Positions 48,839 to 63,230 of a DNA stretch of 64,000 bases are shown one piece after another. The translations under genes and the position numbers were made by a program. Origin of the DNA: an uncultured virus (IMG/VR IMGVR_UViG_3300027743_000024) (taxonomy: Duplodnaviria; Heunggongvirae; Uroviricota; Caudoviricetes); IMG/VR virus record IMGVR_UViG_3300027743_000024; one strand, written 5' to 3'. How positions within the stretch are numbered: the first letter of the stretch is position 1; each line of letters begins with the position of its first letter. Below the pieces are notes generated by a model. The model worked only from the letters and a program-made list of their open reading frames with translations. It was not told the origin of the DNA and did no database searches.

Positions 48839-48864
48839 ATTTAATAATATATTTAATTATTAAA

Positions 48865-49141: not shown

Positions 49142-49147
49142 TTAATT

Positions 49148-49180: not shown

Positions 49181-49215
49181 ATTTGAATATTTATTTACTT
49201 TCATAATCTGCATTA

Positions 49216-50423: not shown

Positions 50424-50456
50424 TATTAATGTATAGCTATTAGTTTAATTTCAATA

Positions 50457-50492
50457 CAAAGGTAGTGTATAATTATAACATATACAACTTTG
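50457..50492 (-). promoter_or_regulatory. Bacteroidota housekeeping-sigma promoter
   Basis: TTG...TACCTTTG matches the Bacteroidota -33/-7 (TAnnTTTG) consensus. Confidence 0.55.
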
Positions 50493-50628
50493 TTTTATAT
50501 TTTTTTTGTAAAATTTTTTGTGTGTGTTAAGAGAGGGAGGTTATTTTTATTTTTTTTGAGTATGTTTAAAGGTGGGGCAACTCCAGAAACCTCCCCTCCT
50601 TAAATCTACGGGGAAAAATGCTTTCCAA

Positions 50629-50730
50629 GTGCTTCTGTCAACCGCAGATTTGATGTGCCAAACGCACAAGCACACGTATTAGCTCATTGGTCAAACGCCA
50701 ACCAGTCTGTCAAACACAGATGAGCTAATA
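50629..50730 (+). repeat. Four 5-bp hairpins with CAAAC/CAACC loops in two multibranch structures
   Basis: TCTGT-CAACC-GCAGA, TGTGC-CAAAC-GCACA, TTGGT-CAAAC-GCCAA, TCTGT-CAAAC-ACAGA. Confidence 0.8.
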
Positions 50731-50802
50731 ATAGCACAATATTATCCTTATGGTAGATGGTGAACCATTCTTTATTTATTATGCTTGCAAATACCGCTTA
50801 TT

Positions 50803-51108
50803 ATGGAATCTAAATTGAAAGTTGTAACAGTACAAGAGTTTATGAAATCAAATGGTATGGTTTCTATTGTACCTGTAGTACGCACAAATGTGAATGATTA
50901 TCCTTACATCACATTCATTAACAACAAGAATGAATCAGAGAACATATACTTCTCTAAGGATTCTTCCAAGTTGTTAACTAAAGGATTGCCTATTACAAGA
51001 GGCTTCTTTGCTAACTATAGTATTGGGTTCACAACCAATGCTGCAGGTGAGACAAGAACCAAACTTGTTGGACAAGGTCAACGTTTATCTGTTGAGGACT
51101 TGTTCTAA
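50803..51108 (+). CDS. First plus-strand (early) gene, hypothetical
   Basis: ATG at 50803 (MESKLK...) preferred over the TTG at 50785. Confidence 0.65.
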   Translation: MESKLKVVTVQEFMKSNGMVSIVPVVRTNVNDYPYITFINNKNESENIYFSKDSSKLLTKGLPITRGFFANYSIGFTTNAAGETRTKLVGQGQRLSVEDLF

Positions 51109-52014
51109 GGATCACGCATACACACAAGCTATCTACCATTGAGTAGGTTGAAAATGGATAACCATTGCTTGTGTGTGTGTGCCTTTAATTACTTAAATGA
51201 ATTAGATTAATTATTTACATTTAAATTAAATTAAATGATTTCAATTAATGGGTGTGTTTGTGTTTCTTTAGAAGATTCACTTGCATTTGATTTTAAATAG
51301 AGGTTTAATTGCCTTGTTAAAGAAATGAGGGATAATGATATTGATTGATATAACTTATTGATTGTCAGGATATTATAGATTAAAGGAGTGTTTATTCCAT
51401 TTAATTATAATTGATTGATTGTCAATGAGTTATATTGATAACTAATTAGATAAATCACTTAAAAATGATTGAGTAAATGAGCTGAATGACTAGTTAGACT
51501 AGGGGTACAGCCCATTCTTCCAATGATTAACCATTTTAGTCTTTATTCAAAAAAGATTAATATGTATTTTATATAGCTTTTAATTAATTAATCAGAACAT
51601 GATACAAATTTTATTGAATTAAGAATATAAATAAAATGTAGTTGTAATTCTGTTAAATGATTGTATATATTAATCAATTATTAGCTTATTTACAAGTCCT
51701 TATGAACTAATGATTAAGGCATATTATTATGTTTAAAACAAAAGAAGCTGTTAAGTACGCAATTGACCTAAAATCGTTTAAGCAACGTGTGATTAACTCA
51801 TATGTGTCACTAGGGAATGTAATTGCCAGTTAATTCAGAGTTGTACAATAAGACTATAAAATCTAGTTAATATTATTGTATAATATAACTGCCACAAAAT
51901 TCAAAAAGATAAAATGTCTTTTGATATGTAATAACGAGTAACTGAATAGTTATACATATATTTTCTTTTATTAACTAATTAACAACTAACCGCTTACTAA
52001 AAACATTTAAACAA

Positions 52015-52272
52015 ATGAAACAATTCAAAACATTAATCAAAGAATCTGCAATTATATGTTTAATTGTATTTGCATTCATATTGTCAATATTTATGACATC
52101 ATGTGAAGAACCACAACCAAGAATTCCATCAATAGCTGATGAAGTTGTTAAATATTCTGGTAATTATGAAATCATTAATGATTCTATTGCTGTTCTTAAA
52201 GATGGCAAAGCAAATAGAGATTTTATATACAAGAAAATTGCCTTAAATGGCAGATGGAAAAGAGTTATTTAA
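52015..52272 (+). CDS. Putative small lipoprotein
   Basis: Signal peptide ending FMTSC. Confidence 0.55.
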   Translation: MKQFKTLIKESAIICLIVFAFILSIFMTSCEEPQPRIPSIADEVVKYSGNYEIINDSIAVLKDGKANRDFIYKKIALNGRWKRVI

Positions 52273-52292
52273 ACCTTTAAAAAAATAAACAA

Positions 52293-52646
52293 ATGAAAGT
52301 ATTAATTAATGATTGCTACGGTGGATTTTCATTCTCCACTGAATTTAAAGACCATATCAATTCTATAACTGATAATCTTATAAATAAATATAAACTTTCA
52401 GCAAGACATAATGTTCTTTTAGTTGAAGAAGCTATTAAATTTGGTCTTGACAAAGCATCAGGTATATGTGCTCAACTAATTGTAGTTGAAATTCCAGATG
52501 GTTGTGAATACAACATACGTGAATATGATGGAATGGAACATATTAATGATATTTGGATAGAAGTATCTAAAGAAGATTTATCAAATGGTTTATCTGAAGA
52601 CCAAATAAATATGGTCCTAAAGGGATGTTCCATAAAGCTTAAATAG
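52293..52646 (+). CDS. Conserved phage hypothetical protein
   Basis: INDCYGGFSFS...VVEIPD...EYDGMEHI motif pattern recurrent in phage proteins. Confidence 0.65.
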   Translation: MKVLINDCYGGFSFSTEFKDHINSITDNLINKYKLSARHNVLLVEEAIKFGLDKASGICAQLIVVEIPDGCEYNIREYDGMEHINDIWIEVSKEDLSNGLSEDQINMVLKGCSIKLK

Positions 52647-53045
52647 AATGTTTTTAGTTTTTCATTCTATTGTTTAACCAACTCCTAATAAATGCAGAAG
52701 ATATAGTACTAGGACTTCTGTTGGTTTAATTTAAAACTATAAAATTAATTATAAACCGCTTATTAAAAATCTAAAACAAATGGTAACATTATGTATTTTA
52801 CCACATATTATATGTGGAACAAAAAAAGGAGGATGGAATATCATCTCCAAAATAACAGGAATGCTTAGTTGTATTGCAATGGATGCAATATATGTCATAC
52901 CTTTAATATTTATGTAATATGTATGAAATAATTTACTATAAACAAGATAATACATTTCATTATGTTGTTCATGCTTATCCAGACAAGTGCAATGAAGTGC
53001 TTGCTTCTGAAAAAGAAACTTTATTAATCTATTTAAACTAAAATT

Positions 53046-53195
53046 ATGAAAAATTTCATTAACACATTAGGTTGGACAGGAATAATATTAACAATATTGG
53101 TATTTATATTATCAAGTTGTTCAACAAGTAAAAGAGTGGATTATGTTTCTAAATGTCCTAAATGGGACAAAACTAATTCATATTCAGGTAACTAG
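53046..53195 (+). CDS. Putative small lipoprotein (49 aa)
   Basis: MKNFINTLGWTGIILTILVFILSSC lipobox; below ORF-track cutoff. Confidence 0.5.
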   Translation: MKNFINTLGWTGIILTILVFILSSCSTSKRVDYVSKCPKWDKTNSYSGN

Positions 53196-53269
53196 AGAGT
53201 TTATGTGTAAGCGGTTACCATAAGAAGTAGATTGGCCTATTGTAGTCAAAAATGGAGTGTGAATCTCCA

Positions 53270-53334
53270 TGCTAATGCATCATAACTATCTTTCCAAGGG
53301 ATAGCAGTTGTAATAAACTGAATGCAGAGGAGCA
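53270..53334 (+). ncRNA. Twister-like self-cleaving ribozyme (type P1 with P5)
   Basis: P1 TGC/GCA, L1 TAA...GA-GGA, P2 TGCA/TGCA, P4 CTATC/GATAG around TTTCCAAGG, T1 TCC/GGA, P5 CAGTT/AACTG. Confidence 0.55.
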
Positions 53335-53367
53335 GAATTTAGTATTAATATATAAAGAAAGATTGAT

Positions 53368-53577
53368 GTGGAGATTTTAACATTTAAAGAAATTAAGAAG
53401 TTACAGAACTTGTTTAGTTGGGCACAGTTCTATCAGAATAGTGAGCAATTAGCAATATCTAGATATCCTAGACACTATTATTATGAGTATGGCAAGAAAT
53501 GCACATTAATGCCTGAAAATGATGTTATTAGATATAACAATGTTCAACAAGAGATTAAACTAATTGGCAACAAATAG
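53368..53577 (+). CDS. Hypothetical protein
   Basis: 69-aa ORF, GTG start. Confidence 0.35.
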   Translation: MEILTFKEIKKLQNLFSWAQFYQNSEQLAISRYPRHYYYEYGKKCTLMPENDVIRYNNVQQEIKLIGNK

Positions 53578-53732
53578 TTAAAAAGAATTAATTATAATTG
53601 ATTACATTATCTACAGACTGTATGTCTCAAAGTTAGATTTAAAATGTAATTAGTTAAATTATATAAAGGAATCATCCCTCTCCTTATTACAAACTGGGAT
53701 TTATTAAAAAACAATCAATAAATACAATTATT

Positions 53733-54284
53733 ATGAAAACTTTAGAAACATTATCAAAAGGAGAAACTTTATTAACATCTGTTAGAAAAGTAAATGGTGG
53801 CAAATTTCAAATTGAAATTGCTGAAATGGTAGAGAACCCAAATGCAAAGGTTAATGTTGCATCTCTATTGAATGCAGGTGATGAGCGTTTTGCTCAATCT
53901 AATGGCAAGCCACGTAGAGCTTGGCAATCTGCAACTCCTGAAGGTTTGATGCTAGTTGGACTAGATGTAAACAAATTATCATTTGCTAATGTAAATGGTA
54001 AGGAAGTTGCAACAGTTAACATGTTAAACCCAACACTTGATGGTGAGCGTTTACATGTACGTTTAGTTGACAAGTATGAGCCTTCTTATGAAGGACAAGC
54101 TCCTAAGCAAGTTGTTGATAAAGATGGTAATAAAACATTCTTTATGAGTGATAAAAAATACATCTATCAATCAACAGAAATTGTTTGTGGAACACCTCAA
54201 CATTCTATCATTAAATCTGATGAGAGAGTTAAACAAGGTGCACATGTTGCATCTGTTAGTTCTGCAAGTGCATTGAATGCATAA
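53733..54284 (+). CDS. Conserved hypothetical protein, likely highly expressed
   Basis: 183 aa; CGT Arg codon bias; followed by terminator. Confidence 0.7.
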   Translation: MKTLETLSKGETLLTSVRKVNGGKFQIEIAEMVENPNAKVNVASLLNAGDERFAQSNGKPRRAWQSATPEGLMLVGLDVNKLSFANVNGKEVATVNMLNPTLDGERLHVRLVDKYEPSYEGQAPKQVVDKDGNKTFFMSDKKYIYQSTEIVCGTPQHSIIKSDERVKQGAHVASVSSASALNA

Positions 54285-54296
54285 TGCAATATAATT

Positions 54297-54335
54297 AGAT
54301 GAGTGAACGTTAATAGCGTTTGCTCATCTTTTTAT
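54297..54335 (+). terminator. Intrinsic terminator
   Basis: AGATGAGTGAACG/CGTTTGCTCATCT stem followed by T-run. Confidence 0.7.
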
Positions 54336-54357
54336 TTTAATTTAAATTTATAATCAA

Positions 54358-54618
54358 ATGGAAAAATATAAATTAAAAAGAATTGATGATGGTTTAGTTA
54401 AAGAAGCAAACAAAGTTATTTACATTGAATGGAATGACAATGGTACATTTAAATCTAAACATGATGAAGCTGCTATTGGAAGAAGTCTTATGTTAGATTC
54501 AAATAATTTTAATTATACTTGGTTAACAACTCAAATAGTTGAAATATTAGAAGAAAAAGACAAATACATTAAGTTTAAAACAGAAAATTCAACATATGAA
54601 CTTGTTCAACATTTTTAA
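54358..54618 (+). CDS. Hypothetical phage protein
   Basis: 86 aa; TWLTTQIVEI...FKTENSTYEL. Confidence 0.65.
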   Translation: MEKYKLKRIDDGLVKEANKVIYIEWNDNGTFKSKHDEAAIGRSLMLDSNNFNYTWLTTQIVEILEEKDKYIKFKTENSTYELVQHF

Positions 54619-54778
54619 AAAGAAGCCCATCATCATTCCACTTGTGTTCAACGGACAAGCAAATGGACAGTGGGTAGAATGTTTTAAAGGAGACGATACA
54701 TACAACAAGTTAGTTAAGTTGTATGGAGAACCATTGCCTAAACAAATTGAAGTAAAGCCAGTAGAACCGGAAAAGTAG
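54596..54778 (+). CDS. Hypothetical protein
   Basis: 60-aa ORF overlapping previous gene. Confidence 0.45.
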   Translation: MNLFNIFKKKPIIIPLVFNGQANGQWVECFKGDDTYNKLVKLYGEPLPKQIEVKPVEPEK

Positions 54779-54790
54779 AAACAACACCTC

Positions 54791-54910
54791 CCCAGTTTCT
54801 TGTTGACTATGCACAGTCAAAGGATTTATAAGGACCATACAAGTAGAAAATACATCTCTGATTTTCTTGTTCCGTGCGTAGGGAAGGATTTAAAGGAGAG
54901 TGAGATTGGG
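54791..54910 (+). ncRNA. Structured RNA candidate with loop-loop pairing
   Basis: Closing stem CCCAGTTTC/GAGATTGGG; loops ATGCAC and GTGCGT complementary. Confidence 0.45.
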
Positions 54911-54955
54911 CGACGTTTATCTTTTGTAACTCAACAACAAACAGAAAAAGATGTT

Positions 54956-55041
54956 AGTCAGGTAATGCGTAATGTGGAAATGGCATCACATCCTTTAGTA
55001 CAATGGTTGCATCGTTACAGGTTCGAGTCCTGTTCTGACTA
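54956..55041 (+). ncRNA. tRNA-like RNA A (no canonical anticodon arm)
   Basis: Acceptor AGTCAGG/TCTGACT+A, T-arm ACAGG-TTCGAGT-CCTGT. Confidence 0.6.
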
Positions 55042-55047
55042 CAAATT

Positions 55048-55151
55048 TCACTCTTAGTGTTATGAGGTAAAACACTTTGACCCTTATATCGCCTGATGTT
55101 GCAACATCCGAATATAAGGAGAGTAAGTTGGTTCGAATCCAACAGAGTGGA
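55048..55151 (+). ncRNA. tRNA-like RNA B with extended central hairpin
   Basis: Acceptor TCACTCT/AGAGTGG+A, D-arm GTGT/ACAC, T-arm GTTGG-TTCGAAT-CCAAC; long CCTTATAT...ATATAAGG arm capped by GATGTTGCAACATC. Confidence 0.6.
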
Positions 55152-55156
55152 CAAAT

Positions 55157-55228
55157 AGTCAGGTGGCGGAATTGGTTAGACGCAGGTATCTCATGATATG
55201 ATTGCAGGTTCGAATCCTGTTCTGACTA
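55157..55228 (+). ncRNA. tRNA-like RNA C (Leu-type D arm, shortened CAT-containing arm)
   Basis: AGTCAGG-TG-GCGGAATTGGTTAGACGC...GCAGG-TTCGAAT-CCTGT-TCTGACT-A; central GTATC-TCAT-GATAT has no 7-nt loop. Confidence 0.6.
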
Positions 55229-55380
55229 CTTTATCTGCTGAAAGCAAACATATAAAGCTGGACCTACGGAATAGGTTTATAATCCCAACCAAGATGGAGT
55301 TGTTTGTAGACAGATACTCGTACCAGCTTATATATTATGTATAAGACGAAGTATTCACACACTTGGAGTGACAGGAATAT

Positions 55381-55402
55381 AAAGAGAGGGTAACACCTCT
55401 CT
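55381..55402. terminator. Bidirectional terminator at end of endonuclease gene
   Basis: AAAGAGAGG-GTAACA-CCTCTCTTT inverted repeat. Confidence 0.65.
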
Positions 55403-56056
55403 TTATTTATATTTAAAAACAAGTTTATTACAGCTTTTAGCTTTATTTCTACAACATCTTGCTATATTAGCAGGGTCAATGTTGTAAAAAGCGGCACATT
55501 CTGCTACAGATGAAAACTCAGATATATTAATATTGTTTTTATATACTAATACAGTCTTTTTTTGTTTTTCTCTAAAATGTTGGACATTTTTGAGTTTAAT
55601 GAAAGATAAAGGATTAGTATAAAACAAATTATAAGCTTTTATAGCTTTTTTAGATGTGTTAAATTCTCCAATATAATAAACAGTATTAAGATATGAGCAT
55701 CTTACACGATACTTTCCTTTGTATATATCATACTTTTTGGCTGTAGTTTTAGGAAGATAATCTTTACATTGCAGTTTACCACCTATATGATTATTACATA
55801 ATTTGTTTGATTGATAATAACTTATCCAGTATATTTCTCTTTGTTCCCAAGATTCTTCTATACATTCTTCAATTATATCTATAATAGGTAATTTATTAGA
55901 TTTGGCTAAATATTTTATCCAGTTAGCTAATCTTGATTTTAGCCTTTTTGCATTAGATATATGAGAAGAATACCTGTTTTTTATATTACCAGTTTTTCCT
56001 ATATATCTTATTTCTAAGGTATCAGGATCCATTAACTTATAAATGTATATTTTCAT
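55403..56056 (-). CDS. Free-standing GIY-YIG homing endonuclease with AP2-like and NUMOD1-like domains
   Basis: YIYKL...RYIGKT..R..H; YIGEFNT..AIKAYN; FSSVAECA...NIARCCRNK; antisense to neighbours. Confidence 0.85.
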   Translation of the reverse strand: MKIYIYKLMDPDTLEIRYIGKTGNIKNRYSSHISNAKRLKSRLANWIKYLAKSNKLPIIDIIEECIEESWEQREIYWISYYQSNKLCNNHIGGKLQCKDYLPKTTAKKYDIYKGKYRVRCSYLNTVYYIGEFNTSKKAIKAYNLFYTNPLSFIKLKNVQHFREKQKKTVLVYKNNINISEFSSVAECAAFYNIDPANIARCCRNKAKSCNKLVFKYK

Positions 56057-56061
56057 ATTAT

Positions 56062-56094
56062 AATATACATAAATTACCTGTCATATGCAACTTA
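56062..56094 (-). promoter_or_regulatory. Putative late promoter of the endonuclease
   Basis: TAAG TTGCAT N17 TATATT, 5 nt before the ATG. Confidence 0.7.
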
Positions 56095-56148
56095 TTTGCA
56101 TATTTTTTTGGAGTGACAGGTAATAACTAAACGCTAGTGGGTAAAGCG

Positions 56149-56262
56149 TAGCAACAGAATGTCCTATTCATACTACATTAATCTATATAGCTGGTCAAGT
56201 CAGTATGTGAGCACATAAGGACACATAATAGATTATAAGGTAGTGTGTTGTAAAGGTTGCTG
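56149..56262 (+). ncRNA. Structured RNA candidate (nested stems, pseudoknot)
   Basis: TAGCAAC/GTTGCTG, CATACTAC/GTAGTGTG, TAATCTAT/ATAGATTA; TGTCCT/AGGACA. Confidence 0.45.
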
Positions 56263-56264
56263 AT

Positions 56265-56406
56265 AGTCAGGTGGTATATTAGAAAACATTTGGTAATATG
56301 GAGCTGCAGTGAAGTATTACATGGCAGGTTAAGTAAAGAGTAATTACTTTATGTAAACTGATAAAGGAATCATCCTTTGGTACCAGGGCAGAACTGGTCC
56401 TGACTA
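56265..56406 (+). ncRNA. tRNA-like RNA D (142 nt, expanded interior)
   Basis: Acceptor AGTCAGG/CCTGACT+A, T-like arm ACCAG-GGCAGAA-CTGGT, several internal hairpins. Confidence 0.55.
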
Positions 56407-56437
56407 CAATTAACAATTAATATTTAACTTTGAACCC

Positions 56438-56740
56438 ATGAAAGTAGACTTAGATGATGAAAAAGCAGCTATTGGCTTAGAAAAAAATAGTAAGGATTGT
56501 AAACATGGATGGAATGATGGTAGTTGCTGTTGTAATTGCAGTAATTTAGTATTAGTTAATAGACATCCAAGCAATACTTTAGTTGAAGCTAAAGGAAGCA
56601 TATCAACTACTTTTGGTTTTGGATGTAAAGCAATGACATTTGATGAGAGTGGAGAAAATAAAAACAAAATAGATAGAATAATATTTAGCTCATCTTTACA
56701 TGGAATGTGTGAATTACATTGTAGAAATAAACCAAAATAA
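56438..56740 (+). CDS. Cys-rich hypothetical protein
   Basis: 100 aa; CCCNC and HGMCELH motifs. Confidence 0.55.
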   Translation: MKVDLDDEKAAIGLEKNSKDCKHGWNDGSCCCNCSNLVLVNRHPSNTLVEAKGSISTTFGFGCKAMTFDESGENKNKIDRIIFSSSLHGMCELHCRNKPK

Positions 56741-56741
56741 A

Positions 56742-56829
56742 TGTGTTGTTCCTTTGAGAAAGGAATTGGTTAGAGAGATAAAGTGAAGGTTATGCTAACA
56801 CTCTACAACACAGAGGACTTCTCATCCTC
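56742..56829 (+). ncRNA. Structured RNA candidate with kissing loops
   Basis: TGTGTTGT/ACAACACA stem; loops TGAGA and TCTCA complementary. Confidence 0.5.
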
Positions 56830-56835
56830 AAACAT

Positions 56836-56907
56836 TGGACAGAGCAGGGTATTGTAGCTTGAGGTTCCTAGGCTCAAGAAGATGGGTTTCAAATACCCAC
56901 TGTCCAG
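56836..56907 (+). ncRNA. tRNA-like RNA E (degenerate D arm, 9-nt central loop)
   Basis: TGGACAG/CTGTCCA+G, T-arm TGGGT-TTCAAAT-ACCCA, CTTGAG-GTTCCTAGG-CTCAAG. Confidence 0.55.
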
Positions 56908-56914
56908 CAAAAAT

Positions 56915-57005
56915 AGTCAGGTGGCGGAATTGGTTAGACGCTATATAGCAGTTTGGAAACAAGCCCAGCTACGAAAAATTACAGGTTCGAATCCTGTCCT
57001 GACTA
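56915..57005 (+). ncRNA. tRNA-like RNA F (anticodon arm replaced by GAAA-capped hairpin)
   Basis: Same 5' 27 nt as RNA C; TAGC-A-GTTTG-GAAA-CAAGC-CCA-GCTA; ACAGG-TTCGAAT-CCTGT-CCTGACT-A. Confidence 0.65.
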
Positions 57006-57006
57006 C

Positions 57007-57113
57007 AATAGGTTGATTGGGGAAAGCTGCTCATGCGGAAGAGGAGGATATAATCCAAAGTAATGCCAATCATAAAAGCAGATGTCCACGCACCCATCTT
57101 CTGCTTTCCTATT
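57007..57113 (+). ncRNA. Structured RNA candidate (three-way junction)
   Basis: AATAGG/CCTATT, TGATTGG/CCAATCA, AAAGCAGA/TCTGCTTT. Confidence 0.5.
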
Positions 57114-57149
57114 TTATTTAATTATTAATATTTAAACTAAAAAAAACTA

Positions 57150-57290
57150 ATGAAAATAGTAATAACAATAGGAGATTTTAAAGTTGAACTATCTGATAAT
57201 ACTGATAGTGCTATAAAATACATTTTTGTAGAAATTAGACAAACAATAACAAGTGTTGTAACAGATTATAAATCACTAAACAAACAATAA
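57150..57290 (+). CDS. Mini-gene (46 aa) ending SLNKQ
   Basis: ORF read manually; ends in array junction motif. Confidence 0.5.
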   Translation: MKIVITIGDFKVELSDNTDSAIKYIFVEIRQTITSVVTDYKSLNKQ

Positions 57291-57294
57291 TAAT

Positions 57295-57492
57295 ATGGCA
57301 GACATAACAAAATGTAAAGGTATAGATTGTTCAATTAAAGATACATGTTATAGATATACAGCAATTGAATCAATATTGCAATCTTACTTTATGGAATCTC
57401 CTATTAAGGATGGTAAATGTGATATGTATTGGGGTGAGGATGCTGAAGCTATATTTAATCAGTTAAAAGGAATACTAAACAAACAAGACTAA
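57295..57492 (+). CDS. Cys-containing mini-gene ending LNKQD
   Basis: MADITKCKGIDC...CYRY; 65 aa. Confidence 0.65.
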   Translation: MADITKCKGIDCSIKDTCYRYTAIESILQSYFMESPIKDGKCDMYWGEDAEAIFNQLKGILNKQD

Positions 57493-57623
57493 TATGAAAA
57501 CAGAATTATGTTAGAAAACGAAAATTTGAATGAAGCAGAAAAACCGCAATTGAATATAGGTGCTGTTAGGTATCAGTATTTTTAAACAGAAGGGGAGAAA
57601 TTAAAAACTAAAATTATATAGAT

Positions 57624-57944
57624 ATGAGAAATGAAAAAACAGTAACAACAAAATTAATGATGAGCTTGTACGCAATGGCTTCCCATCAAGGTTTTTTAGG
57701 TGTTAGAACAGGTAATAATGATTTAGATTTATTTGTTTTAAATCAATGGATTAGAAAGCGTATTAATATCCATATTTTAATTGAATTAGACTATGAAGAA
57801 GGAATGTATAGAATAAATGCTTGTAATATACAACGTGAGCCTGAATGGATGTTAAATAAAATATACGATAAATATTTATTCAAAAATTATGAATTCGCTT
57901 TATTTACAGGTATTAGTGAATTTTTAAAACAAAACTATTTATGA
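57624..57944 (+). CDS. Hypothetical protein (cassette 1)
   Basis: 106-aa ORF. Confidence 0.6.
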   Translation: MRNEKTVTTKLMMSLYAMASHQGFLGVRTGNNDLDLFVLNQWIRKRINIHILIELDYEEGMYRINACNIQREPEWMLNKIYDKYLFKNYEFALFTGISEFLKQNYL

Positions 57945-58207
57945 AAACAAAAGACGATTTAAAAAAAGAGTATGTTTTTAGGCATACAAAAAATTGGGAT
58001 AAAGAAACTACTGAAAAATACATATATAATGTTTTAGAAGATTTTAGTGTTTTTTATCAGGGATATTTGGAAGGAATAAAATCTGTTGCTGATAAAGCAT
58101 TGCCAATTTTAGAATACACAAAAGGCAAATTAGATTCATCGGCAGGCTTTTTTCAGCAATCAGTTGATAATTTAATAACGGATTTGCACACACACACAGG
58201 CGGGTAG
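57941..58207 (+). CDS. Hypothetical protein (cassette 1)
   Basis: 88-aa ORF, ATGA-coupled. Confidence 0.6.
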   Translation: MKTKDDLKKEYVFRHTKNWDKETTEKYIYNVLEDFSVFYQGYLEGIKSVADKALPILEYTKGKLDSSAGFFQQSVDNLITDLHTHTGG

Positions 58208-58223
58208 GGTTTAAAAATATTGT

Positions 58224-58317
58224 ACCTAACGGTCGAGGCTATGAGCAGTTGCCTTGTAAATACTGTTCAATTAACCAACAAACGCTGATAGGCAATTGCT
58301 TATAGCCTTTGTTAGCA
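58224..58317 (+). repeat. attC-like recombination site (94 bp)
   Basis: ACCTAAC ... AGGCTATGAGCAGTTGCCT / AGGCAATTGCTTATAGCCT ... GTTAGCA. Confidence 0.65.
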
Positions 58318-58673
58318 AACGTATTTTATGGATTATAAATTAACAACAAACAGACAATATTCACACCACGATAAAGATGGTGCTGATAGAAATTACATAT
58401 CCTATTTTTTGAATGGTATATTAATATTGAAACAAAAAATACCATTTGATACAAATTGGGAAAGAGGTTTTGATAGACGAACATCAATATATGATGAATA
58501 TATTTTGAATGGTAAAATGTATCAAAAACGCAGAAAATGGCTTGGGTGTTCTAATGAGGATAATGATAAAACAGAGATACGAGAAGTATCATTTCCATTA
58601 TCAAAAAATAGATTAGCACAATTTGATATACCAAAGGACTTTCGGATTGTGGTGTCTTAATATGTTTGCTAAC
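58311..58673 (+). mobile_element. Integron-like gene cassette 2
   Basis: Starts GTTAGCAAACGTATT, ends AATATGTTTGCTAAC (14/15 complementary), tightly enclosing one ORF. Confidence 0.6.
58328..58660 (+). CDS. Hypothetical protein (cassette 2)
   Basis: 110-aa ORF. Confidence 0.65.
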   Translation: MDYKLTTNRQYSHHDKDGADRNYISYFLNGILILKQKIPFDTNWERGFDRRTSIYDEYILNGKMYQKRRKWLGCSNEDNDKTEIREVSFPLSKNRLAQFDIPKDFRIVVS

Positions 58674-58727
58674 TAATGGCTAACCGCCATAACGTGGCGT
58701 ATATACAACTAAATAAACAAGACTAAT
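58667..58727 (+). repeat. Direct repeat copy 1 (47 bp exact, 61 bp with 2 mismatches)
   Basis: TGCTAACTAATGGCTAACCGCCATAACGTGGCGTATATACAACTAAA, repeated 490 bp downstream. Confidence 0.9.
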
Positions 58728-58971
58728 GAAAACTAAAGAAGAAATAGTAATACAAGCAAAAGCGTATGCAGAATCTATTGGTAATGAAGATGGAACATCT
58801 GCTTATGATTATGTAATGGGTTACAACCAATGCCAAGAAGATATAAAGGAATATATTTTTGAAGTAGCATTTCAATTTCATAGATTAGGCAAATATAGTG
58901 GTAACACAAGTGATACTCATTTTACTGATATTTATGAAGAAACAATAAACTCACTAAACAAACAAGACTAA
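58726..58971 (+). CDS. MKTKEEI...LNKQD family mini-gene
   Basis: 81 aa; shares GYNQCQED block with 59385-59594. Confidence 0.65.
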   Translation: MKTKEEIVIQAKAYAESIGNEDGTSAYDYVMGYNQCQEDIKEYIFEVAFQFHRLGKYSGNTSDTHFTDIYEETINSLNKQD

Positions 58972-59162
58972 TGACAAGTAGAGATTTTGCCTTTTGGCTA
59001 CAAGGGTTTTTTGAAGTAAGCAATGCTGAAACAATTACCAAAGAACAAACACAAGTGATTAAAAAGCATTTAAACTTAGTATTTAAGCATGAAATAGACC
59101 CAAGTATGGGAGATGAAAAACATCAACAGGAGTTAAATGAAATACATAGCCCTTACTGCTAA
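58971..59162 (+). CDS. Phage mini-gene (MTSRDFAFWLQGFFE)
   Basis: 63 aa; TAATG-coupled. Confidence 0.65.
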   Translation: MTSRDFAFWLQGFFEVSNAETITKEQTQVIKKHLNLVFKHEIDPSMGDEKHQQELNEIHSPYC

Positions 59163-59217
59163 CTAATGGCTAACCGCCATAACGTGGCGTATATACAACT
59201 AAAAAAACAAGACCAAT
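59157..59217 (+). repeat. Direct repeat copy 2
   Basis: Matches 58667-58727. Confidence 0.9.
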
Positions 59218-59385
59218 ATGAACAAAATAGAGAGAGCAATTTATGATGCTAAAATTCATATAAAAGATTTAGAAAAAGACAGACTTATAATTGAAACTAA
59301 AATTGATGCCTTTAACAGTATGCTGACTAACTTAGAAAGCATTGAAAGTTCTACAAGTATTCCACATATAAACAAACAAGAATAA
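59218..59385 (+). CDS. Mini-gene (55 aa) ending INKQE
   Basis: ORF read manually between two junction motifs. Confidence 0.55.
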   Translation: MNKIERAIYDAKIHIKDLEKDRLIIETKIDAFNSMLTNLESIESSTSIPHINKQE

Positions 59386-59594
59386 TGAAAACACAAGAAG
59401 AAATAAAACAGTTAGCTGAATCAATTTATGGTAAAGGTAAAGTTGAAGATTATGAAGAAGGATTTATAGATGGTTACAACCAATGCCAAGAAGATATGGC
59501 TAAGAAATACGCAGAAGATGATATGTTAAAATGTTGGAATACTGCTCACAAAATGGCAGAACAATACTACAAAAAAACATTTAAACAAGACTAA
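59385..59594 (+). CDS. MKTQEEI...FKQD family mini-gene
   Basis: 69 aa; TAATG-coupled. Confidence 0.65.
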   Translation: MKTQEEIKQLAESIYGKGKVEDYEEGFIDGYNQCQEDMAKKYAEDDMLKCWNTAHKMAEQYYKKTFKQD

Positions 59595-59860
59595 TGAAAA
59601 CAAAAGAAGAAATAGAAGCAATGGCAAATGACTTTGTATCACTTGCATTTAATAAACAAGATTTGTATGATGGCTTTATAAATGGCTACACTCAAGGCAG
59701 TTTAGATATGGCTAATGTTGATAATGTAAAAGTAACAAGATTTGAAGTCATTGATGAAAGTGGGAGAGTATATACTAAGCGTAAGTGTAAAGTAGAATTA
59801 TCTTACCAAGATGATGACACAACTTTAAAAGTATTTATTAAACAAACAAGAATAATATGA
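59594..59860 (+). CDS. MKTKEEI family mini-gene fused to VTRFEVID...GRVY module
   Basis: 88 aa; TAATG-coupled. Confidence 0.65.
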   Translation: MKTKEEIEAMANDFVSLAFNKQDLYDGFINGYTQGSLDMANVDNVKVTRFEVIDESGRVYTKRKCKVELSYQDDDTTLKVFIKQTRII

Positions 59861-60034
59861 AAACACACATCAAAGCATCACTCATCACACTGTTGATTAT
59901 ATCAGCAATTATAGGATTAGTATATTCAATGATATTTTATCCTCAATTATTGGTAGATATTTTTATGTATATAGCATTAGTGGTAGTTGTTGTAGCCATT
60001 TATCAATTAGTGTTAATAAACATAAAGAAATAAG

Positions 60035-60149
60035 GGTCCTCATTACCATTATAATAAAAGCAAAGAAGAAGTATGTCAGCTATAATGGTTATGTAACGTC
60101 TGTGACACTATATGTTTTCATACTTTCCTATAGTGTAGATAACGGGACC
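60035..60149 (+). ncRNA. Structured RNA candidate with kissing loops
   Basis: GGTCC/GGACC, ACCATTATA/TATAATGGT, ACACTATA/TATAGTGT; loops contain AAGTATG and CATACTT. Confidence 0.5.
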
Positions 60150-60171
60150 AAATTATTAAATAAACAATACA

Positions 60172-60378
60172 ATGACAGTTATACATGAAGTACAACAAGT
60201 TTTATGGGTAACTACACCACATGGTGATGGTCAAGTTCTTTTTATTATGGACTATGGTGTACATGAGAACACTATCTGGGTGGTAGCCTTAGAAGATGGT
60301 AGTGAAATAAAGCATTATAATACCACACAAATAAAACTTTGTTGGAATAATACATTAAATTTTAATCTAAATAAATAA
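60172..60378 (+). CDS. Hypothetical phage protein
   Basis: 68 aa; WVTTPHGDG...DYG motif. Confidence 0.6.
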   Translation: MTVIHEVQQVLWVTTPHGDGQVLFIMDYGVHENTIWVVALEDGSEIKHYNTTQIKLCWNNTLNFNLNK

Positions 60379-60383
60379 AAATT

Positions 60384-60530
60384 ATGACAAGTTATGATGA
60401 TTGGAAGTTAGCAACACCTGATAATGAAGGTGATGCAATTAATGTTGAATGCCCTGAATGTGAAGGATGGGGATTAATTGATGATGAAGAATGTTTTGAA
60501 TGTGAAGGTAAAGGAATTATTAATAAATAA
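60384..60530 (+). CDS. Small zinc-finger protein (DnaJ-type CxxCxGxG x2)
   Basis: CPECEGWG and CFECEGKG in a 48-aa ORF read manually. Confidence 0.6.
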   Translation: MTSYDDWKLATPDNEGDAINVECPECEGWGLIDDEECFECEGKGIINK

Positions 60531-60540
60531 ACTATAAAAA

Positions 60541-60813
60541 ATGGGACAAAAAGTAATTATTGAAGATCTACAGCCTGGTAAAACATCCAATGGCAATGAT
60601 TATTCTACAGAGAGTATGAAAGTTTACATTAAAGCTCAACATAAGTTGTCTGCTTTAGTGCCTAGAGATGCAACAGTTTGGACTAAAACTGATAGTGAAA
60701 TAAAAGAATTAAAGAAAGCTAAAATGCAACATAAAGTGTTGATGCTATCTAATTATCCAGAATACACTAATAAATCTGATTTTTACACTCAAAAAGCGCT
60801 AATATGGAACTAA
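60541..60813 (+). CDS. Hypothetical protein
   Basis: 90-aa ORF. Confidence 0.55.
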   Translation: MGQKVIIEDLQPGKTSNGNDYSTESMKVYIKAQHKLSALVPRDATVWTKTDSEIKELKKAKMQHKVLMLSNYPEYTNKSDFYTQKALIWN

Positions 60814-61094
60814 CTAACAACCAAAAAATCAATGAATTTTATTCAGAAGCATTATCATTCATACAAAGAGATGATTATAAGAAAGCAACTAAGATTCTAT
60901 ATAATTCTATGCCAGAATCATTATATGATCAGTCTATGGATATTCTATTTAATAGAAATACAAAGACAATTGATGATGAGTTTAAAGAGCTAAGAGAGCT
61001 AATTAAAATGGTTGATGATAAGTTATGTGCTTTTTCATTTAAAGATGAAGTTAATGAAGAGATAGTTGATCATTTTAATGGTGATATATTTTAA
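60804..61094 (+). CDS. Hypothetical protein
   Basis: 96-aa ORF. Confidence 0.55.
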   Translation: MELTNNQKINEFYSEALSFIQRDDYKKATKILYNSMPESLYDQSMDILFNRNTKTIDDEFKELRELIKMVDDKLCAFSFKDEVNEEIVDHFNGDIF

Positions 61095-61096
61095 TT

Positions 61097-61285
61097 ATGA
61101 TAGTAGAAATAACAAGAGAAGAGAAGAGTCAAATTGTTAGAGATACATTGGACAGAATAGTTTATTGTAATAACTATAAAGAAGAGCTAATAAAGCTTAA
61201 TAGTAAATACAATCCACATAGAGATGTCAAATATAGATATAACAGTATTCAAGAAACTTTAATAATCCCTCAAATAATAACATAA
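61097..61285 (+). CDS. Hypothetical protein
   Basis: 62-aa ORF. Confidence 0.5.
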   Translation: MIVEITREEKSQIVRDTLDRIVYCNNYKEELIKLNSKYNPHRDVKYRYNSIQETLIIPQIIT

Positions 61286-61286
61286 G

Positions 61287-61529
61287 ATGAATTATAGAGA
61301 TAAGAAAAGATTAACAAGCAAAGATAAGTCTTTAATAAAGGCTAGATATTTTGCTAAAGTGGAAGAATATAAGCTAAAGACTATTGATGAGTTAACTGAT
61401 ATATTTAGAAACACTAAGATATCAGCAACAGATAGGAATGCAATTATTGCTGCAACAGAATATCTAATGCAAGATAGTATGGACAAAATTACAACAATGA
61501 AAATTGATAGTGAAATAGATGCTGAATAA
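61287..61529 (+). CDS. Hypothetical protein
   Basis: 80-aa ORF. Confidence 0.55.
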   Translation: MNYRDKKRLTSKDKSLIKARYFAKVEEYKLKTIDELTDIFRNTKISATDRNAIIAATEYLMQDSMDKITTMKIDSEIDAE

Positions 61530-61885
61530 TGGCAAAAAAGAATACAGGAGATAAGTCATTAGTAATTTCTAAAGCTATATTTGACAAGTTTACTAAAATT
61601 GATGATAAGAACATTAAAGATTTCTTTAATGAAACTACAATGTTTATAATAATTGTCAATGCTAAAAACAAAATTAATATGTTGCATTCATTTATGGTAA
61701 CCAAAAAACTTACTAAAGGTGTGTTTAAATTCAATTACATGTGGGATGGCAACTTGTCATCCTGCAATGTAATTGTAAGAGAGAATGAATCAGCAGAAAA
61801 TTATGAAATTAGAATTAATGATTTAAAATCCTATATGAAAAATGAAATCAAACTTGGAAGATTGTATGCAAGATCAATACAATGA
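61529..61885 (+). CDS. Hypothetical protein
   Basis: 118-aa ORF, TAATG-coupled. Confidence 0.55.
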   Translation: MAKKNTGDKSLVISKAIFDKFTKIDDKNIKDFFNETTMFIIIVNAKNKINMLHSFMVTKKLTKGVFKFNYMWDGNLSSCNVIVRENESAENYEIRINDLKSYMKNEIKLGRLYARSIQ

Positions 61886-62042
61886 GCTTACATTAGTTTC
61901 AATTGTTAATAGTTTTACAATTGTAGATAAAAAGATGAAGATAATTAATATATCTGAAGATATGTTATCTGAAGATAATTTGAATTATTTAATGCAATTA
62001 AAAAAGAGATATAAATATAGTTTACAATACACAATTAAATAA
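61842..62042 (+). CDS. Hypothetical protein
   Basis: 66-aa ORF; true start may be the internal MQDQ. Confidence 0.4.
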   Translation: MKSNLEDCMQDQYNELTLVSIVNSFTIVDKKMKIINISEDMLSEDNLNYLMQLKKRYKYSLQYTIK

Positions 62043-62048
62043 AAAGAA

Positions 62049-63230
62049 ATGGAACAAAATTTAATATTAGACATTAATAGGATTTCTAAGAAACTTCTTG
62101 TTAATGATATTTTCTATGGTTTGTTTTTGACAACAATAGAGAAAAAAGAATCAAAAGATGTGCCATTGGCTGCTGTTGGTCTTAATAAGAATACAATGGA
62201 ATTCTGTTTAATAATTAATCCAGAAGAATGGTTTAAGCTTACAGATGAGATTAAGTTTGGTGTATTAAAACATGAGGCTATGCATTTAACAGCATTCCAT
62301 TTAATAACTATGGATTTATATCCAAATGCTAAAATGGATAATATTGCTTGTGACATTGATATTAATCAAAAGATACCAAAGCAATATTTGCCAAAATGGG
62401 GATGTTTCTTGGAAGAATTCCAAACAAAATATCCACTATTAAATTGGCAAGAAAATGCTGGTAGAGCTCATTATTACAAAGAACTTGGTAAATTATCTGA
62501 AGAAGAAAAAGAGGAGATTGGTATTGATGAAAAATCACAGCATAAATGGGTTATAGTTGATGGTAAAGGTAAGCCATGTAATGGTGAATTAACTGATGCA
62601 ATGAAAGATGCTATTAGAGTTCAGGTTGAACACACTATTGAGAATATAGCTGAAGAGATTCAAAAGTCTCAAGGTAATATTCCTGTAGAAATTGATAAAT
62701 TGATTAAAGGATTTGTTAAGCCTAAGCCTAAGTTTAATTATGCCAAATATATCAAGAATTTTGTTGGTAATTCAACTAAATACATGATTGGATCAACTAA
62801 GCTTAGAGAGAATCAAAGATTCCCAGGACAGCCTAAAATCATATTAAAACCAGTATCTAAAATGCTTGTATTGATTGATGAGTCAGGTTCTGTTTCAGAA
62901 AAAGAATTGTATGATTTCTTAAATGAAATTCATCACCTATCTAAGAAAACTGATATAGAAATTAGACCATTTGACACTGCTGTAATGGATCCTGTTAAAT
63001 ATTCTGGTAAAGGATCATTTAAAAGAACTAATTGTGGTGGTACATCATTTACAGCTGCTGTTGATTTTTATAATAAAACCAAATACAATTCATGTATTAT
63101 ATTTACAGATGGATTTGCAGAAACTCCTCCAGTATGTAATAAGCGTTTATTATGGGTTATTAGTTCTAATGGTGATGAATCTCCTATAAAAGATCATGCA
63201 ACATGGATTAAAATCCCTCAAGAGAATTAG
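62049..63230 (+). CDS. Metallopeptidase-vWA domain protein (DUF2201-like)
   Basis: KHEAMH (HExxH), NIACDIDIN, vWA MIDAS DESGS, GGT and FTDG motifs. Confidence 0.85.
   Translation: MEQNLILDINRISKKLLVNDIFYGLFLTTIEKKESKDVPLAAVGLNKNTMEFCLIINPEEWFKLTDEIKFGVLKHEAMHLTAFHLITMDLYPNAKMDNIACDIDINQKIPKQYLPKWGCFLEEFQTKYPLLNWQENAGRAHYYKELGKLSEEEKEEIGIDEKSQHKWVIVDGKGKPCNGELTDAMKDAIRVQVEHTIENIAEEIQKSQGNIPVEIDKLIKGFVKPKPKFNYAKYIKNFVGNSTKYMIGSTKLRENQRFPGQPKIILKPVSKMLVLIDESGSVSEKELYDFLNEIHHLSKKTDIEIRPFDTAVMDPVKYSGKGSFKRTNCGGTSFTAAVDFYNKTKYNSCIIFTDGFAETPPVCNKRLLWVISSNGDESPIKDHATWIKIPQEN

Follow-up and report, generated by a model that had tools for sequence, protein, structure and literature searches.

In integrons, an insert specific to the integrase IntI contacts the extrahelical bases of the folded attC site. 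Xer recombinases act on duplex DNA at dif or at plasmid pdif modules, and XerCD integrates the folded single-stranded DNA of the CTX phage at the host dif. For the PeSL of T4-like phages, gene shuffling is reportedly attributed to homologous recombination at a promoter-terminator motif.

Qi et al. (2023, PMC9892861) report CALINs, attC clusters that lack an integrase, from virulent phages, and the accessible text of that report contains no occurrence of crAss or of Xer. Bacteroidales carry recombinase-associated acquired interbacterial defence clusters, rAID-1 (Ross et al. 2019, bioRxiv 10.1101/471110). As set out in the accessible part of that preprint, they are recognized by a recombinase that shares 44% identity or more with the B. 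fragilis NCTC 9343 reference and lies 5′ of at least two co-directional low-GC genes, by conserved repetitive intergenic sequences and by orphan immunity cargo; they are reported in 226 of 423 Bacteroidales genomes. In the accessible portion of a 2025 rAID preprint (PMC12247911), the words phage, hairpin and integron are absent, and rAID biogenesis is called an open question.

Here, we compare these systems with a locus in a crAss-like phage. We consider it likely that the block at ~57510-58699 of the window (the whole 64-kb stretch of DNA that was analyzed) is a horizontally acquired cassette pair belonging to an integron-like system of Bacteroidota and their phages.

Composition and layout of the block

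The block stands out by its CpG content, as an earlier note on this DNA had observed. The observed/expected ratio is 0.91 in 57541-58713, versus 0.13 for the whole window and 0.10 in 59200-62000, and the CpG-rich block spans 57519 (the first CpG) to 58698. In a close relative (L140) the flanks are 95-99% identical and unrelated small ORFs occupy the block position, where the covariance model described below found no folded sites. The CpG contrast and this comparison support the conclusion that ~57510-58699 is foreign to the phage backbone. The features are as follows.

57510..57587, + strand: left edge of the putatively imported block; a 25-codon leader ORF crosses the 3′ half of a long-type site
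57565..57587, + strand: cassette 1 start box (GTTAGG...), pairs with 58209-58230
57624..57944, + strand: cargo ORF 1 of cassette 1, 106 aa
57941..58207, + strand: cargo ORF 2 of cassette 1, 88 aa
58209..58230, + strand: cassette 1 end box, read from the sequence, terminating in CCTAAC; similarity to viral contig L001 begins at 58226
58218..58323, + strand: sole complete folded site (attC-like), by covariance model, folds and covariation
58311..58325, + strand: cassette 2 start box (GTTAGCAAACGTATT), pairs with 58659-58673
58328..58660, + strand: cargo ORF 3 of cassette 2, 110 aa; the same cassette occurs in other viral contigs
58659..58673, + strand: cassette 2 end box (...TATGTTTGCTAAC), right limit of the unit common to contigs L001, L003 and L005
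58674..58699, + strand: CpG-rich remnant with two further TAAC boxes, a 5-bp mini-hairpin and CpGs at 58685, 58693 and 58698
59157..59227, + strand: second copy (92%) of a 71-nt repeat, 58667-58737, that includes the TGCTAAC box and the CpG-rich remnant

At the left edge, a 3′-arm remnant (57547-57564) is followed by the GTTAGG box, forming the right half-site ahead of cassette 1 (57547-57570) that had been pointed out before; the 5′ arm is missing and 57510..57587 yields no hairpin on folding. In long-type sites of other loci, the ORF start sits within the loop. At the other end, 58674..58699 probably represents another, truncated site, with which the imported block ends on the right. The repeat copies 58667-58737 and 59157-59227 flank two CpG-poor native-type ORFs, and the second copy has CpGs at 59175, 59183 and 59188. 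Truncated sites at both edges are unlike the products of site-specific insertion. The three cargo ORFs have no match in Pfam, PHROGs or PADLOC, and ORF1 has no relatives among viral contigs.

The start of each cassette pairs with its own end. For cassette 1 (57565-57587 with 58209-58230), this involves 8 bp, a bulged T and 14 bp, with one G·T whose G is in the 5′ arm, and for cassette 2 (58311-58325 with 58659-58673) it involves 15 bp with one G·T. A repeat search of 4 kb places both long-range pairs (I11 for cassette 1, I9 for cassette 2) among 58 inverted pairs, and since many of those are AT-rich chance pairs, the start/end pairs are not significant by length alone. Across 36 cassettes, the contiguous run of own-end complementarity has a median of 11 and reaches at least 9 in 26, versus a median of 5 and at least 9 in 3.8% of 1222 mismatched cassette pairs; own-end pairing is weak in 10 of the 36. 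It is this own-end complementarity, along with the covariance-model score, the covariation and the CpG content, that makes the features significant.

Relatives of the phage were sought by several routes. Used as a query, the window's capsid protein retrieves a complete relative (G011) at 72% identity and has no match in G006, G001, G009 or G004, of which only G009 is complete; this last is a site-carrying phage whose sole integrase is unrelated and has no sites nearby. The loci of nine relatives, searched with the covariance model, contain no sites. A DNA search of INPHARED with the window returned no close relatives, one with two sites and one cassette gave only two marginal matches, and an exact 60-base search with the window's end found no match in viral contigs. 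As had been noted before, no integrase is present in the window: a profile search of its 53 ORFs found no tyrosine recombinase. A complete 89.7-kb relative has no recombinase either.

The folded site, its covariation and its breakpoints

In the complete site, the box stem (CTAACG/TGTTAG) leads through an asymmetric internal loop into a stem of 17-20 bp, in which 58234-58253 pairs with 58291-58311 and two of the pairs are G·T; a 37-nt loop closes it. All the elements from which an attC-like site had been proposed, ACCTAAC at 58224-58230, GTTAGCA at 58311-58317 and the two arms, are in place. A covariance model was built from 18 sites, the window site among them. It has only two matches up to E 10 in the 64 kb, both at 58218-58323: the + strand reaches 91.7 bits (E 8e-17), the - strand 21.2. 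With RNA parameters, the + strand folds at -42.7 kcal/mol versus -31.5 for the - strand, and with DNA parameters at -17.4 versus -15.1. Rfam contains no family that matches: only two tRNAs reach gathering scores, and 57300-59300 has one sub-threshold match.

In 18 phage sites from other contigs, 94.4% of alignment cells are paired versus 74.6% in shuffles, with none of 500 shuffles as high, and sliding the 3′ partner by 1-3 columns drops the paired cells to 32-50%. Compensatory changes occur in 12 of 20 pairs, and a G·U is conserved at one stem position (17/18 sites) and at the box (18/18). In an alignment fitted to the model, 74 bacterial sites are 95.4% paired and have the G·U at that stem position in 73 of 73. 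The consensus structure has no conserved bulged (extrahelical) bases and has conserved G·T wobbles instead; arm mismatches are almost exclusively G·T pairs whose G belongs to the 5′ arm. A simple pattern scan matched 119 stretches, mostly by chance, and in a scan of loci a partner box lies within 1.5 kb of 19 of 122 matches. An RNA role in phage transcripts would fit equally well with the G·T wobbles and with a long-range stem that ends against the start and stop codons.

The unit at 58226-58673, comprising the site, the ORF and the closing TGCTAAC, recurs in three unrelated viral contigs at 96%, 88% and 68% identity. Similarity to L001, L003 and L005 starts at 58226, 58213 and 58280, respectively, and stops at 58673 or 58674, with unrelated flanks. 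It breaks off at the TAAC boxes, where the earlier note had expected breakpoints at G|TTA. The shared unit has a CTAAC box at either end, at 58226-58230 and at 58669-58673, which would place the exchange within TAAC|G. The crossover at the end of cassette 1 would then fall within TAAC|G at 58230|58231, and not at G|TTAGCA (58311) as first proposed. The breakpoints map inside a shared TAACG core, within which the sequence does not fix the exact bond. By the same comparison, the window hairpin would go with the ORF that follows it.

The ORF3 cassette is 96% identical to its copy in L001, a viral-contig fragment rated 11% complete. Other loci provide similar cases. A 359-nt cassette bounded by TAACG...CCTAACG is common to L028 and L070 at 100% identity with unrelated flanks, and L008 and L028 are 99.8% identical over 5.6 kb and diverge just past ...CTACTAACGTTTTGC. 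ORF3 homologues occur in five contigs, two of which (L002 and L004) have neither a site nor a TAAC end. Exchange is not always at the core, since L015 and L043 share one ORF and right end behind two different left sites. In public Logan contigs (depth about 2-7, covered parts only), the circular-cassette joints that the earlier note had expected in reads are not seen, and no recombination event or excision joint was observed; joints in contigs from public runs fall at the phage's native ORF-junction motif, not at TAAC|G.

Tyrosine recombinases beside the sites in other phages and in Bacteroidota

PF00589 recombinases are encoded in four of five array-bearing contigs (5 genes), and junction motifs occur only upstream of each PF00589 gene, on its strand. 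The best 80 viral loci with relatives of this recombinase contain 255 model sites, and 59 of the 80 have matches. All sites but one (254/255) are on the recombinase strand and all but two are upstream; where at least 2 kb of upstream sequence is available, 52 of 57 loci have model matches. A hairpin-less TAAC|G lies ~50 nt ahead of the recombinase start codon in L070 and L175. In L028, the recombinase gene at 6354-7169 encodes 271 aa. One of the phage contigs is 246 kb, with 92% estimated completeness. The isolated Cellulophaga phage Ingeline and Polaribacter phage Freya, whose homologous integrases are 40% and 33% identical, show no junction-motif bias and no model matches.

What kind of enzyme is this? 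The best NCBIfam match is NF040815 (XerA/‘integron integrase’) at 166-207 bits; the integron integrase family TIGR02249 is second for three of four proteins at 146-171 bits, in two stretches and below its cut-off of 265. The N-terminal domain is PF13495, and XerA is closest among solved structures (4a8e, 5hxy). In an alignment with IntI4 (2a3v), the 31 aa of query residues 179-209 face 77 aa of the chain, residues 179-255. Judged from these alignments, the linked enzyme is without the IntI-specific insert and is not an IntI. The proposal of an integron-like cassette system is upheld in that other phages link this site family to a tyrosine recombinase, but not in the identity of the enzyme. In a tree, a branch with SH-aLRT 99 separates the viral recombinases from 78 bacterial ones.

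Among 80 Bacteroidota loci, 63 model sites occur in 29, and 62 of the 63 are downstream of the recombinase on the opposite strand; 25 of 38 loci with at least 3 kb of downstream sequence have a site. Two Bacteroidales genomes show the same downstream, opposite-strand pattern. Of 61 genomes sampled from the order to which G016 (a Paludibacter MAG) belongs, 26 have a recombinase homologue (34-52% identity). A recombinase was thus found elsewhere, as the earlier note had suggested it might be, in other phages and in Bacteroidota, but not in the complete relative of the window's phage. A single covariance model has matches in the window, in the phage arrays and in the bacterial ones. In bacterial arrays, ORFs are on the non-folding strand (14356 aa vs 1463), and in phage arrays they are on the folding strand (4483 aa vs 868). 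The folding strand is constant per site while the ORF strand flips, which argues for a role at the DNA level rather than in mRNA.

Origin of the block and comparison with known systems

The proposed cassette, on the folding strand, would read G, hairpin, TGTTAR, x, ORF, x′, YTAAC, with exchange inside the 5-nt TAAC|G core. Given that the start box (GTTAR-x) pairs with its own end box (x′-YTAAC), the ends of a circularized cassette would close one long hairpin; in the circle predicted for cassette 2, 58673 would be joined to 58231. The putative enzyme is a small XerA/IntI-like tyrosine recombinase of 265-271 aa that may act on the folding strand as single-stranded DNA. Conserved G·T wobbles would mark that strand where attC has extrahelical bases, and the + strand of the window would behave as the integron ‘bottom’ strand. 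In recombinase-bearing phages, the array directly upstream on the gene's strand and the hairpin-less TAAC|G in the attI position would amount to canonical integron geometry, but with inverted cargo ORFs that start inside or just past the site.

Could the hairpins and start/end stems instead be RNA elements of phage early transcripts, with genes shuffled by homologous recombination between such conserved intergenic stretches, the mechanism reportedly suggested for PeSL motifs in T4-like phages? They might serve RNase III-type processing, act as stabilizing panhandles or exert translational control. There are papers on PeSL (PMC2839356, PMC4122927). Read on the strand that encodes the phage ORFs, every wobble is a G·U. 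The RNA fold of the + strand is by far the more stable, and the long-range stems stretch from the start-codon side to the stop codon. Moreover, ORFs begin in the loop of long-type sites, the loop resembles the phage's own ORF-upstream motif, and mosaic joints between related strains fall at that native motif. We nonetheless consider this explanation unlikely. The same fold and the conserved G·T occur antisense to the ORFs in 16 bacterial arrays, and a dedicated tyrosine recombinase adjoins the sites in 52 of 57 viral loci. Neighboring sites differ in stem sequence, leaving only 5-7 conserved nucleotides at the breakpoints, and flanks switch exactly at TAACG. Furthermore, no terminator-like sites were found at the locus, and promoter-like sites are not enriched there, falling below the shuffle mean.

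Another explanation retains the recombinase and has it use ordinary duplex DNA, in the style of Xer at dif or pdif, with the arms as protein-binding arms. The affinity of the enzyme to XerA, by structure and by NCBIfam, and its lack of the IntI insert fit this. It is decidedly unlikely, however, given that the arms covary rather than keep one sequence (12/20 pairs compensatory), are 35-70 nt or more apart and have a G-in-5′-arm G·T asymmetry that is meaningless in duplex DNA. The units might also be passengers of an IS200/IS605-like (PATE-like) system, in which an HUH Y1 transposase cuts after a fixed pentanucleotide beside a hairpin. Such recognition would be strand-specific, and each unit does follow YTAAC, with the hairpin just 3′ and the same pentanucleotide at its end. 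Yet PF01797 is encoded in none of the five array-bearing contigs (controls positive) and by none of the window ORFs, units have a single hairpin rather than two, and the consistently adjacent enzyme is a tyrosine recombinase, all of which make this very improbable. Lastly, the 58 inverted pairs in 4 kb, many of them equally long, could suggest that the palindromes are functionless chance features of AT-rich DNA. The covarying arms, the covariance-model scores and the return of such sites in hundreds of loci refute that notion, and the CpG contrast also speaks against it.

Returning to an acquired, integron-like cassette pair, how did it reach this genome? The window's phage most likely has no recombinase of its own, and its cassettes may have come from another phage, as the near-identical ORF3 cassette in L001 suggests. 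Entry could have relied on a recombinase supplied in trans by the host or by a co-infecting phage, or on recombination via the start-signal motif that the site loops contain. The block, down to one complete site and with no recombinase in the window or in the complete relative, is probably a CALIN-like imported cluster or relic. The idea that the crAss-like phage itself captures genes, as put forward in the earlier note, finds no support here: no recombinase is found in the window or in the complete relative, the loci of nine relatives have no sites, and the block has a single complete site and truncated edges.

It is an even call whether phages of Bacteroidota, large ones included, run their own integron-like capture platforms. 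These would combine a phage-clade XerA-like recombinase with folded sites arrayed upstream, the loops of which would also serve as gene start signals. Such platforms would trade early or accessory genes across unrelated phage families, crAss-like phages included, in one exchange network with hosts and with the G·T wobbles as the strand-choice signal. The site family is the same as in the hosts' rAID arrays; if the reading is true, host and phage cassette pools and trans-acting host recombinases would form that one network. Our literature search brought up no paper on such arrays in phages. The gain and swapping of the many small accessory genes of virulent phages is largely unexplained, and a defined site with a linked enzyme offers a testable mechanism. 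Bacterial rAID clusters gain a structural recombination site, with a folding strand, a core and a conserved wobble. Integron-type logic may, on the evidence of these genes, work with a recombinase that lacks the IntI insert. If cassettes do cross unrelated phage families, this would be a new route of gene flow among Bacteroidota phages.

Of the described systems, IS200/IS605 elements and PATEs differ in that no Y1 HUH gene (PF01797) is present here and a hairpin occurs at one end only. PeSL likewise involves small accessory genes of hyperplastic phage regions that lie between copies of a motif containing a stem-loop and move as modules, but here the stems covary, a dedicated recombinase accompanies the sites and the breakpoints fall within a core of 5 nt. 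The XerCD-CTX system likewise pairs an Xer-type tyrosine recombinase with a folded single-stranded phage hairpin as substrate, but there a whole phage genome enters dif and no cassette array is involved.

The bacterial loci found here match the rAID-1 layout exactly, as given in the accessible part of its description, and carry the same site family, and the repetitive intergenic sequences of rAID-1 correspond to one site family across the window, phages and bacteria. The phage loci differ from rAID-1 in that their recombinases form a separate clade and their cargo has no immunity domains recognized by Pfam, PHROGs or PADLOC. The recombinase is 3′ of the array, with sites on its strand, whereas in rAID-1 it is 5′ of co-directional genes.

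Compared with integrons, the recombinase lacks the IntI insert and scores below IntI cut-offs, box complementarity reaches 9-18 bp, and conserved G·T wobbles stand where attC has extrahelical bases. Phage cargo ORFs share the folding strand, with starts inside the site or directly behind it, and the window, unlike other phages, has no array adjoining an integrase via attI. In other respects the parallel with integrons is close. Both have an imperfect hairpin folded between RYYYAAC- and GTTRRRY-type boxes, cassette starts that complement their own ends, probably here too a crossover at one box only, and site clusters without an integrase, as in the window. In other phages, a tyrosine recombinase gene has the array against its 5′ end, and a simple junction takes the place of attI.

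Cassette block and its folded site

The window comes from a crAss-like phage, with Pfam matches to crAss major capsid, muzzle and tail-ring proteins on the - strand and a run of small + strand ORFs starting at ~57.1 kb. Pfam found no integrase or transposase among the 53 window ORFs, consistent with the earlier note, which saw no integrase. CpG is very scarce in the phage genome (201 CpGs in 64 kb, observed/expected 0.13). The reported CpG enrichment of 57541-58713 is real (0.91, against 0.13 over the 64 kb and 0.10 at 59200-62000), and the CpG-rich stretch extends from 57519 to 58698. All sequence elements named in the earlier note were found where it placed them.

Features of the cassette block and the nearby nuclease gene (from the sequence unless indicated)
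55403-56056, - strand: GIY-YIG gene, the only nuclease found among the 53 window ORFs (Pfam)
from the leader ATG at 57510, + strand: left edge of the block, a site without its 5' arm
57547-57570, + strand: 3' half-site
57565-57587 with 58209-58230, + strand: long-range complementary pair of cassette 1
58218-58323: the one site in the 64 kb (covariance model, 91.7 bits on the + strand, 21.2 bits on the - strand)
58224-58230, + strand: ACCTAAC box
58234-58253 and 58291-58311, + strand: hairpin arms
58311-58317, + strand: GTTAGCA box
58311-58325 with 58659-58673, + strand: long-range complementary pair of cassette 2
58674-58699, + strand: right edge of the block, a short remnant with two more TAAC boxes

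Every non-Watson-Crick pair in the window helices is a G·T whose G belongs to the 5' arm, so the + strand of the site gives a considerably more stable fold than the - strand (-42.7 vs -31.5 kcal/mol as RNA; -17.4 vs -15.1 with DNA parameters).

Local CpG peaks occur at 29-30, 37-39, 50-52 and 54-59 kb; one island is the tRNA and GIY-YIG region, another the cassette block. The ~2.4 kb at 54603-56979, including the GIY-YIG gene, are replaced by ~216 bases in the close relative L140 and look like a homing-endonuclease insertion within a tRNA-rich region. Rfam reports a 91-nt tRNA at 56915-57005 where ARAGORN gives none; ARAGORN instead finds an odd tRNA with a two-letter anticodon at 55157-55229. 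Many contigs from four runs match both ends of 56915-57005 but skip 37-52 nt between ~56930 and 56983, which may be an intervening sequence, or the contigs may only hold tRNAs of other organisms. Very few ORFs ≥45 aa (code 11) occur on either strand at 47000-53700, between the structural and small-ORF blocks.

Mobile unit, arrays and linked recombinase

The 110-aa ORF3 (58328-58660), the cargo of cassette 2, has relatives in five viral contigs. Similarity to the window at the DNA level covers 58226-58673 in L001 (96.2%), 58213-58673 in L003 (88.1%) and 58280-58674 in L005 (68.2%). In the alignment a CTAAC box marks both the start and the end of similarity, and both flanks are unrelated; thus, the moving unit is hairpin, ORF and terminal TGCTAAC. 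Judging from these observed breakpoints, the crossover lies within TAAC|G, and not at G|TTAGCA, where it had first been placed. The expected recurrence of the cassettes in other phages is seen for the ORF3 unit in three contigs, with a different breakpoint; in L002 and L004 the ORF is present, but both site and TAAC end are missing. With the window capsid protein as query, a homologue (72%) was found in the complete crAss-like relative G011, but none in the complete 60.5-kb phage that carries L005, nor in three fragments, so the cassette is common to unrelated phages. Just upstream of the ORF3 cassette in L001, a start and an end box stand only 9 bases apart (2876-2904, GTTAGCAAAT...TGTTTGCTAAC), in what looks like an empty cassette.

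L003 encodes at least 10 small + strand ORFs, each with a terminal [CA]TAACG[GT], a motif with 11 occurrences on that strand and 0 on the other. Most matches of a 14-base scan arose by chance, yet it recovered 17 cassettes, the majority of which share one architecture: YTAAC|G(G/T), an arm of 17-19 nt, a conserved loop of ~35 nt, the complementary arm, TGTTAR-x, the ORF and x'-YTAAC. Most cassette ends of six arrays form runs of 9-18 bp with a box that lies 80 or 120 nt inside their own cassette, and a G·T recurs at the eleventh position. Runs of at least 9 link 26 of 36 cassettes to their own end, compared with 3.8% of 1222 pairings to other cassettes. When 18 sites, including that of the window, were aligned, 94.4% of cells were paired in the common structure (0 of 500 shuffles were as high, and slid controls gave 32-50%), 12 of 20 pairs show compensatory changes, and a G·U pair is conserved at one stem position in 17 of the 18. 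A 359-nt cassette is 100% identical in L028 and L070, where it lies between TAACG and CCTAACG in unrelated flanks. L008 and L028 are identical over 5.6 kb and diverge just after a TAACG.

Among five array-bearing contigs, four have tyrosine recombinase genes (five in total), and none has a Y1 transposase. Each recombinase gene is directly 3' of an array on the same strand, and junction motifs are upstream only. The proteins (265-271 aa, PF13495 and PF00589) have NF040815, XerA/'integron integrase', as top NCBIfam match, under the cut-off; for three of four the second match is the integron integrase TIGR02249, in two stretches and also under the cut-off. The nearest solved structures are XerA and then IntI4. 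Relative to IntI4 ~46 residues are missing (77 IntI4 residues opposite 31 query residues), a region that we take to be the IntI-specific domain. Neighbors of the arrays are phage genes for DNA polymerase, 3'-5' exonuclease, HNH endonuclease, a QueC-like protein and a sigma factor. On the 246-kb viral contig L015, array and recombinase (254-6403) lie between a DNA polymerase gene and a 3'-5' exonuclease/polymerase exonuclease-subunit gene.

Distribution of the sites and their likely role

A covariance model built from the 18 aligned sites was run on several locus sets. The best 80 viral recombinase loci, which include some duplicates of one phage, contain 255 matches, 254 on the recombinase strand and all but two upstream; 80 Bacteroidota loci contain 63 matches in 29 loci, 62 of them downstream and on the opposite strand. 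Where enough sequence is available, matches occur in 52 of 57 viral loci (≥2 kb upstream) and 25 of 38 bacterial loci (≥3 kb downstream). There were no matches in nine loci of crAss-like relatives or in the isolated Freya and Ingeline phages. In a quick, midpoint-rooted tree of sets that are each the best 80 to one query, 71 viral recombinases and two MAG contigs, one with the phage layout, are split from 78 bacterial sequences by a branch with SH-aLRT 99.

Many of the bacterial contigs (L142-L227) stop within 1-3 kb after the recombinase gene; <1.5 kb of downstream sequence is left in 34 of 80 loci, and three of six fetched Bacteroidales regions are cut there, which fits assemblies breaking at repeated sites. 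Among the near-identical Polaribacter phage isolates Freya_1 to Freya_10 (INPHARED), the integrase start ranges from record position 71 to 4168 and genome length rises from 43978 to 48920; Freya_10 is without sites of the studied family.

Is the element a DNA site, or does it serve the mRNA? An mRNA-serving element is expected to track the ORF. The folding strand is constant relative to site and junction, while the ORF strand varies: ORFs of 16 bacterial arrays are on the non-folding strand (14356 aa vs 1463), those of six phage arrays on the folding strand (4483 aa vs 868). All 73 of 73 bacterial sites keep the G·T conserved in phage sites, in an alignment fitted to the model. Since the site tracks junction and recombinase, and not the ORF, the element is, in our reading and by analogy with attC, a site of DNA recombination that adopts its fold in single-stranded form. 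An additional RNA role in phage transcripts is possible because phage ORFs begin in or just after the site. The integron-like interpretation thus stands in substance, with changes to the crossover side, the enzyme family and whether the window phage is itself active.

Origin of the window locus and relation to known systems

L140 is 95-99% identical to the window at 53316-54603, 56979-57117 and 60024-62405, and has unrelated small ORFs in place of 57118-60023 and no sites. Truncated sites bound the CpG-rich block on both sides, and each of these edges passes into the native ORF-junction motif of the phage, which the site loops resemble. This motif (ACTAAACAAACAAGACTAATG and variants, 6-7 copies in 57274-60397) supplies the ...NKQD C terminus of a small ORF and extends into the start of its successor. 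At the locus, gene order differs in low-depth contigs from further runs; one order joins 57289 directly to 58725 and bypasses the block, and the mosaic joints among related strains lie at the native motif. A 71-nt direct repeat (58667-58737 and 59157-59227, 92% identity) brackets two CpG-poor native-type ORFs; it opens with a TGCTAAC box and has three CpGs per copy.

We infer that the two cassettes were imported from another phage, perhaps by recombination through the native ORF-junction motif or by a recombinase supplied in trans, and that the locus is now probably largely fixed. Of the earlier proposal that this phage captures or shuffles accessory genes, import is retained, but the activity is probably not its own: no tyrosine recombinase was found in a complete 89.7-kb relative or among the window ORFs.

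Integron components do occur in phages. Clusters of attC sites without an integrase (CALINs) are reported in 17 phages, some with attC sites recombined by IntI1, in a paper whose accessible text mentions neither crAss nor Xer (PMC9892861). Integrons are rare in Bacteroidetes, according to the accessible part of the IntegronFinder 2.0 paper (PMC9024848). In the bacterial loci, as in the published rAID-1 clusters, short co-directional genes with intervening repeats come after the recombinase. The biogenesis of rAID clusters is still called open in a 2025 preprint, and the words phage, hairpin and integron are absent from its accessible text (PMC12247911). Of 61 genomes sampled from the order of a Paludibacter MAG, 26 have a homologue of the phage recombinase, and in two of these 26 the studied site family lies downstream of the recombinase gene. 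Neither phage-borne arrays accompanied by this recombinase nor such a widespread phage-borne platform is described in any paper that our literature searches turned up. The window site is a member of a large family, and this family joins the platform to the bacterial rAID arrays.
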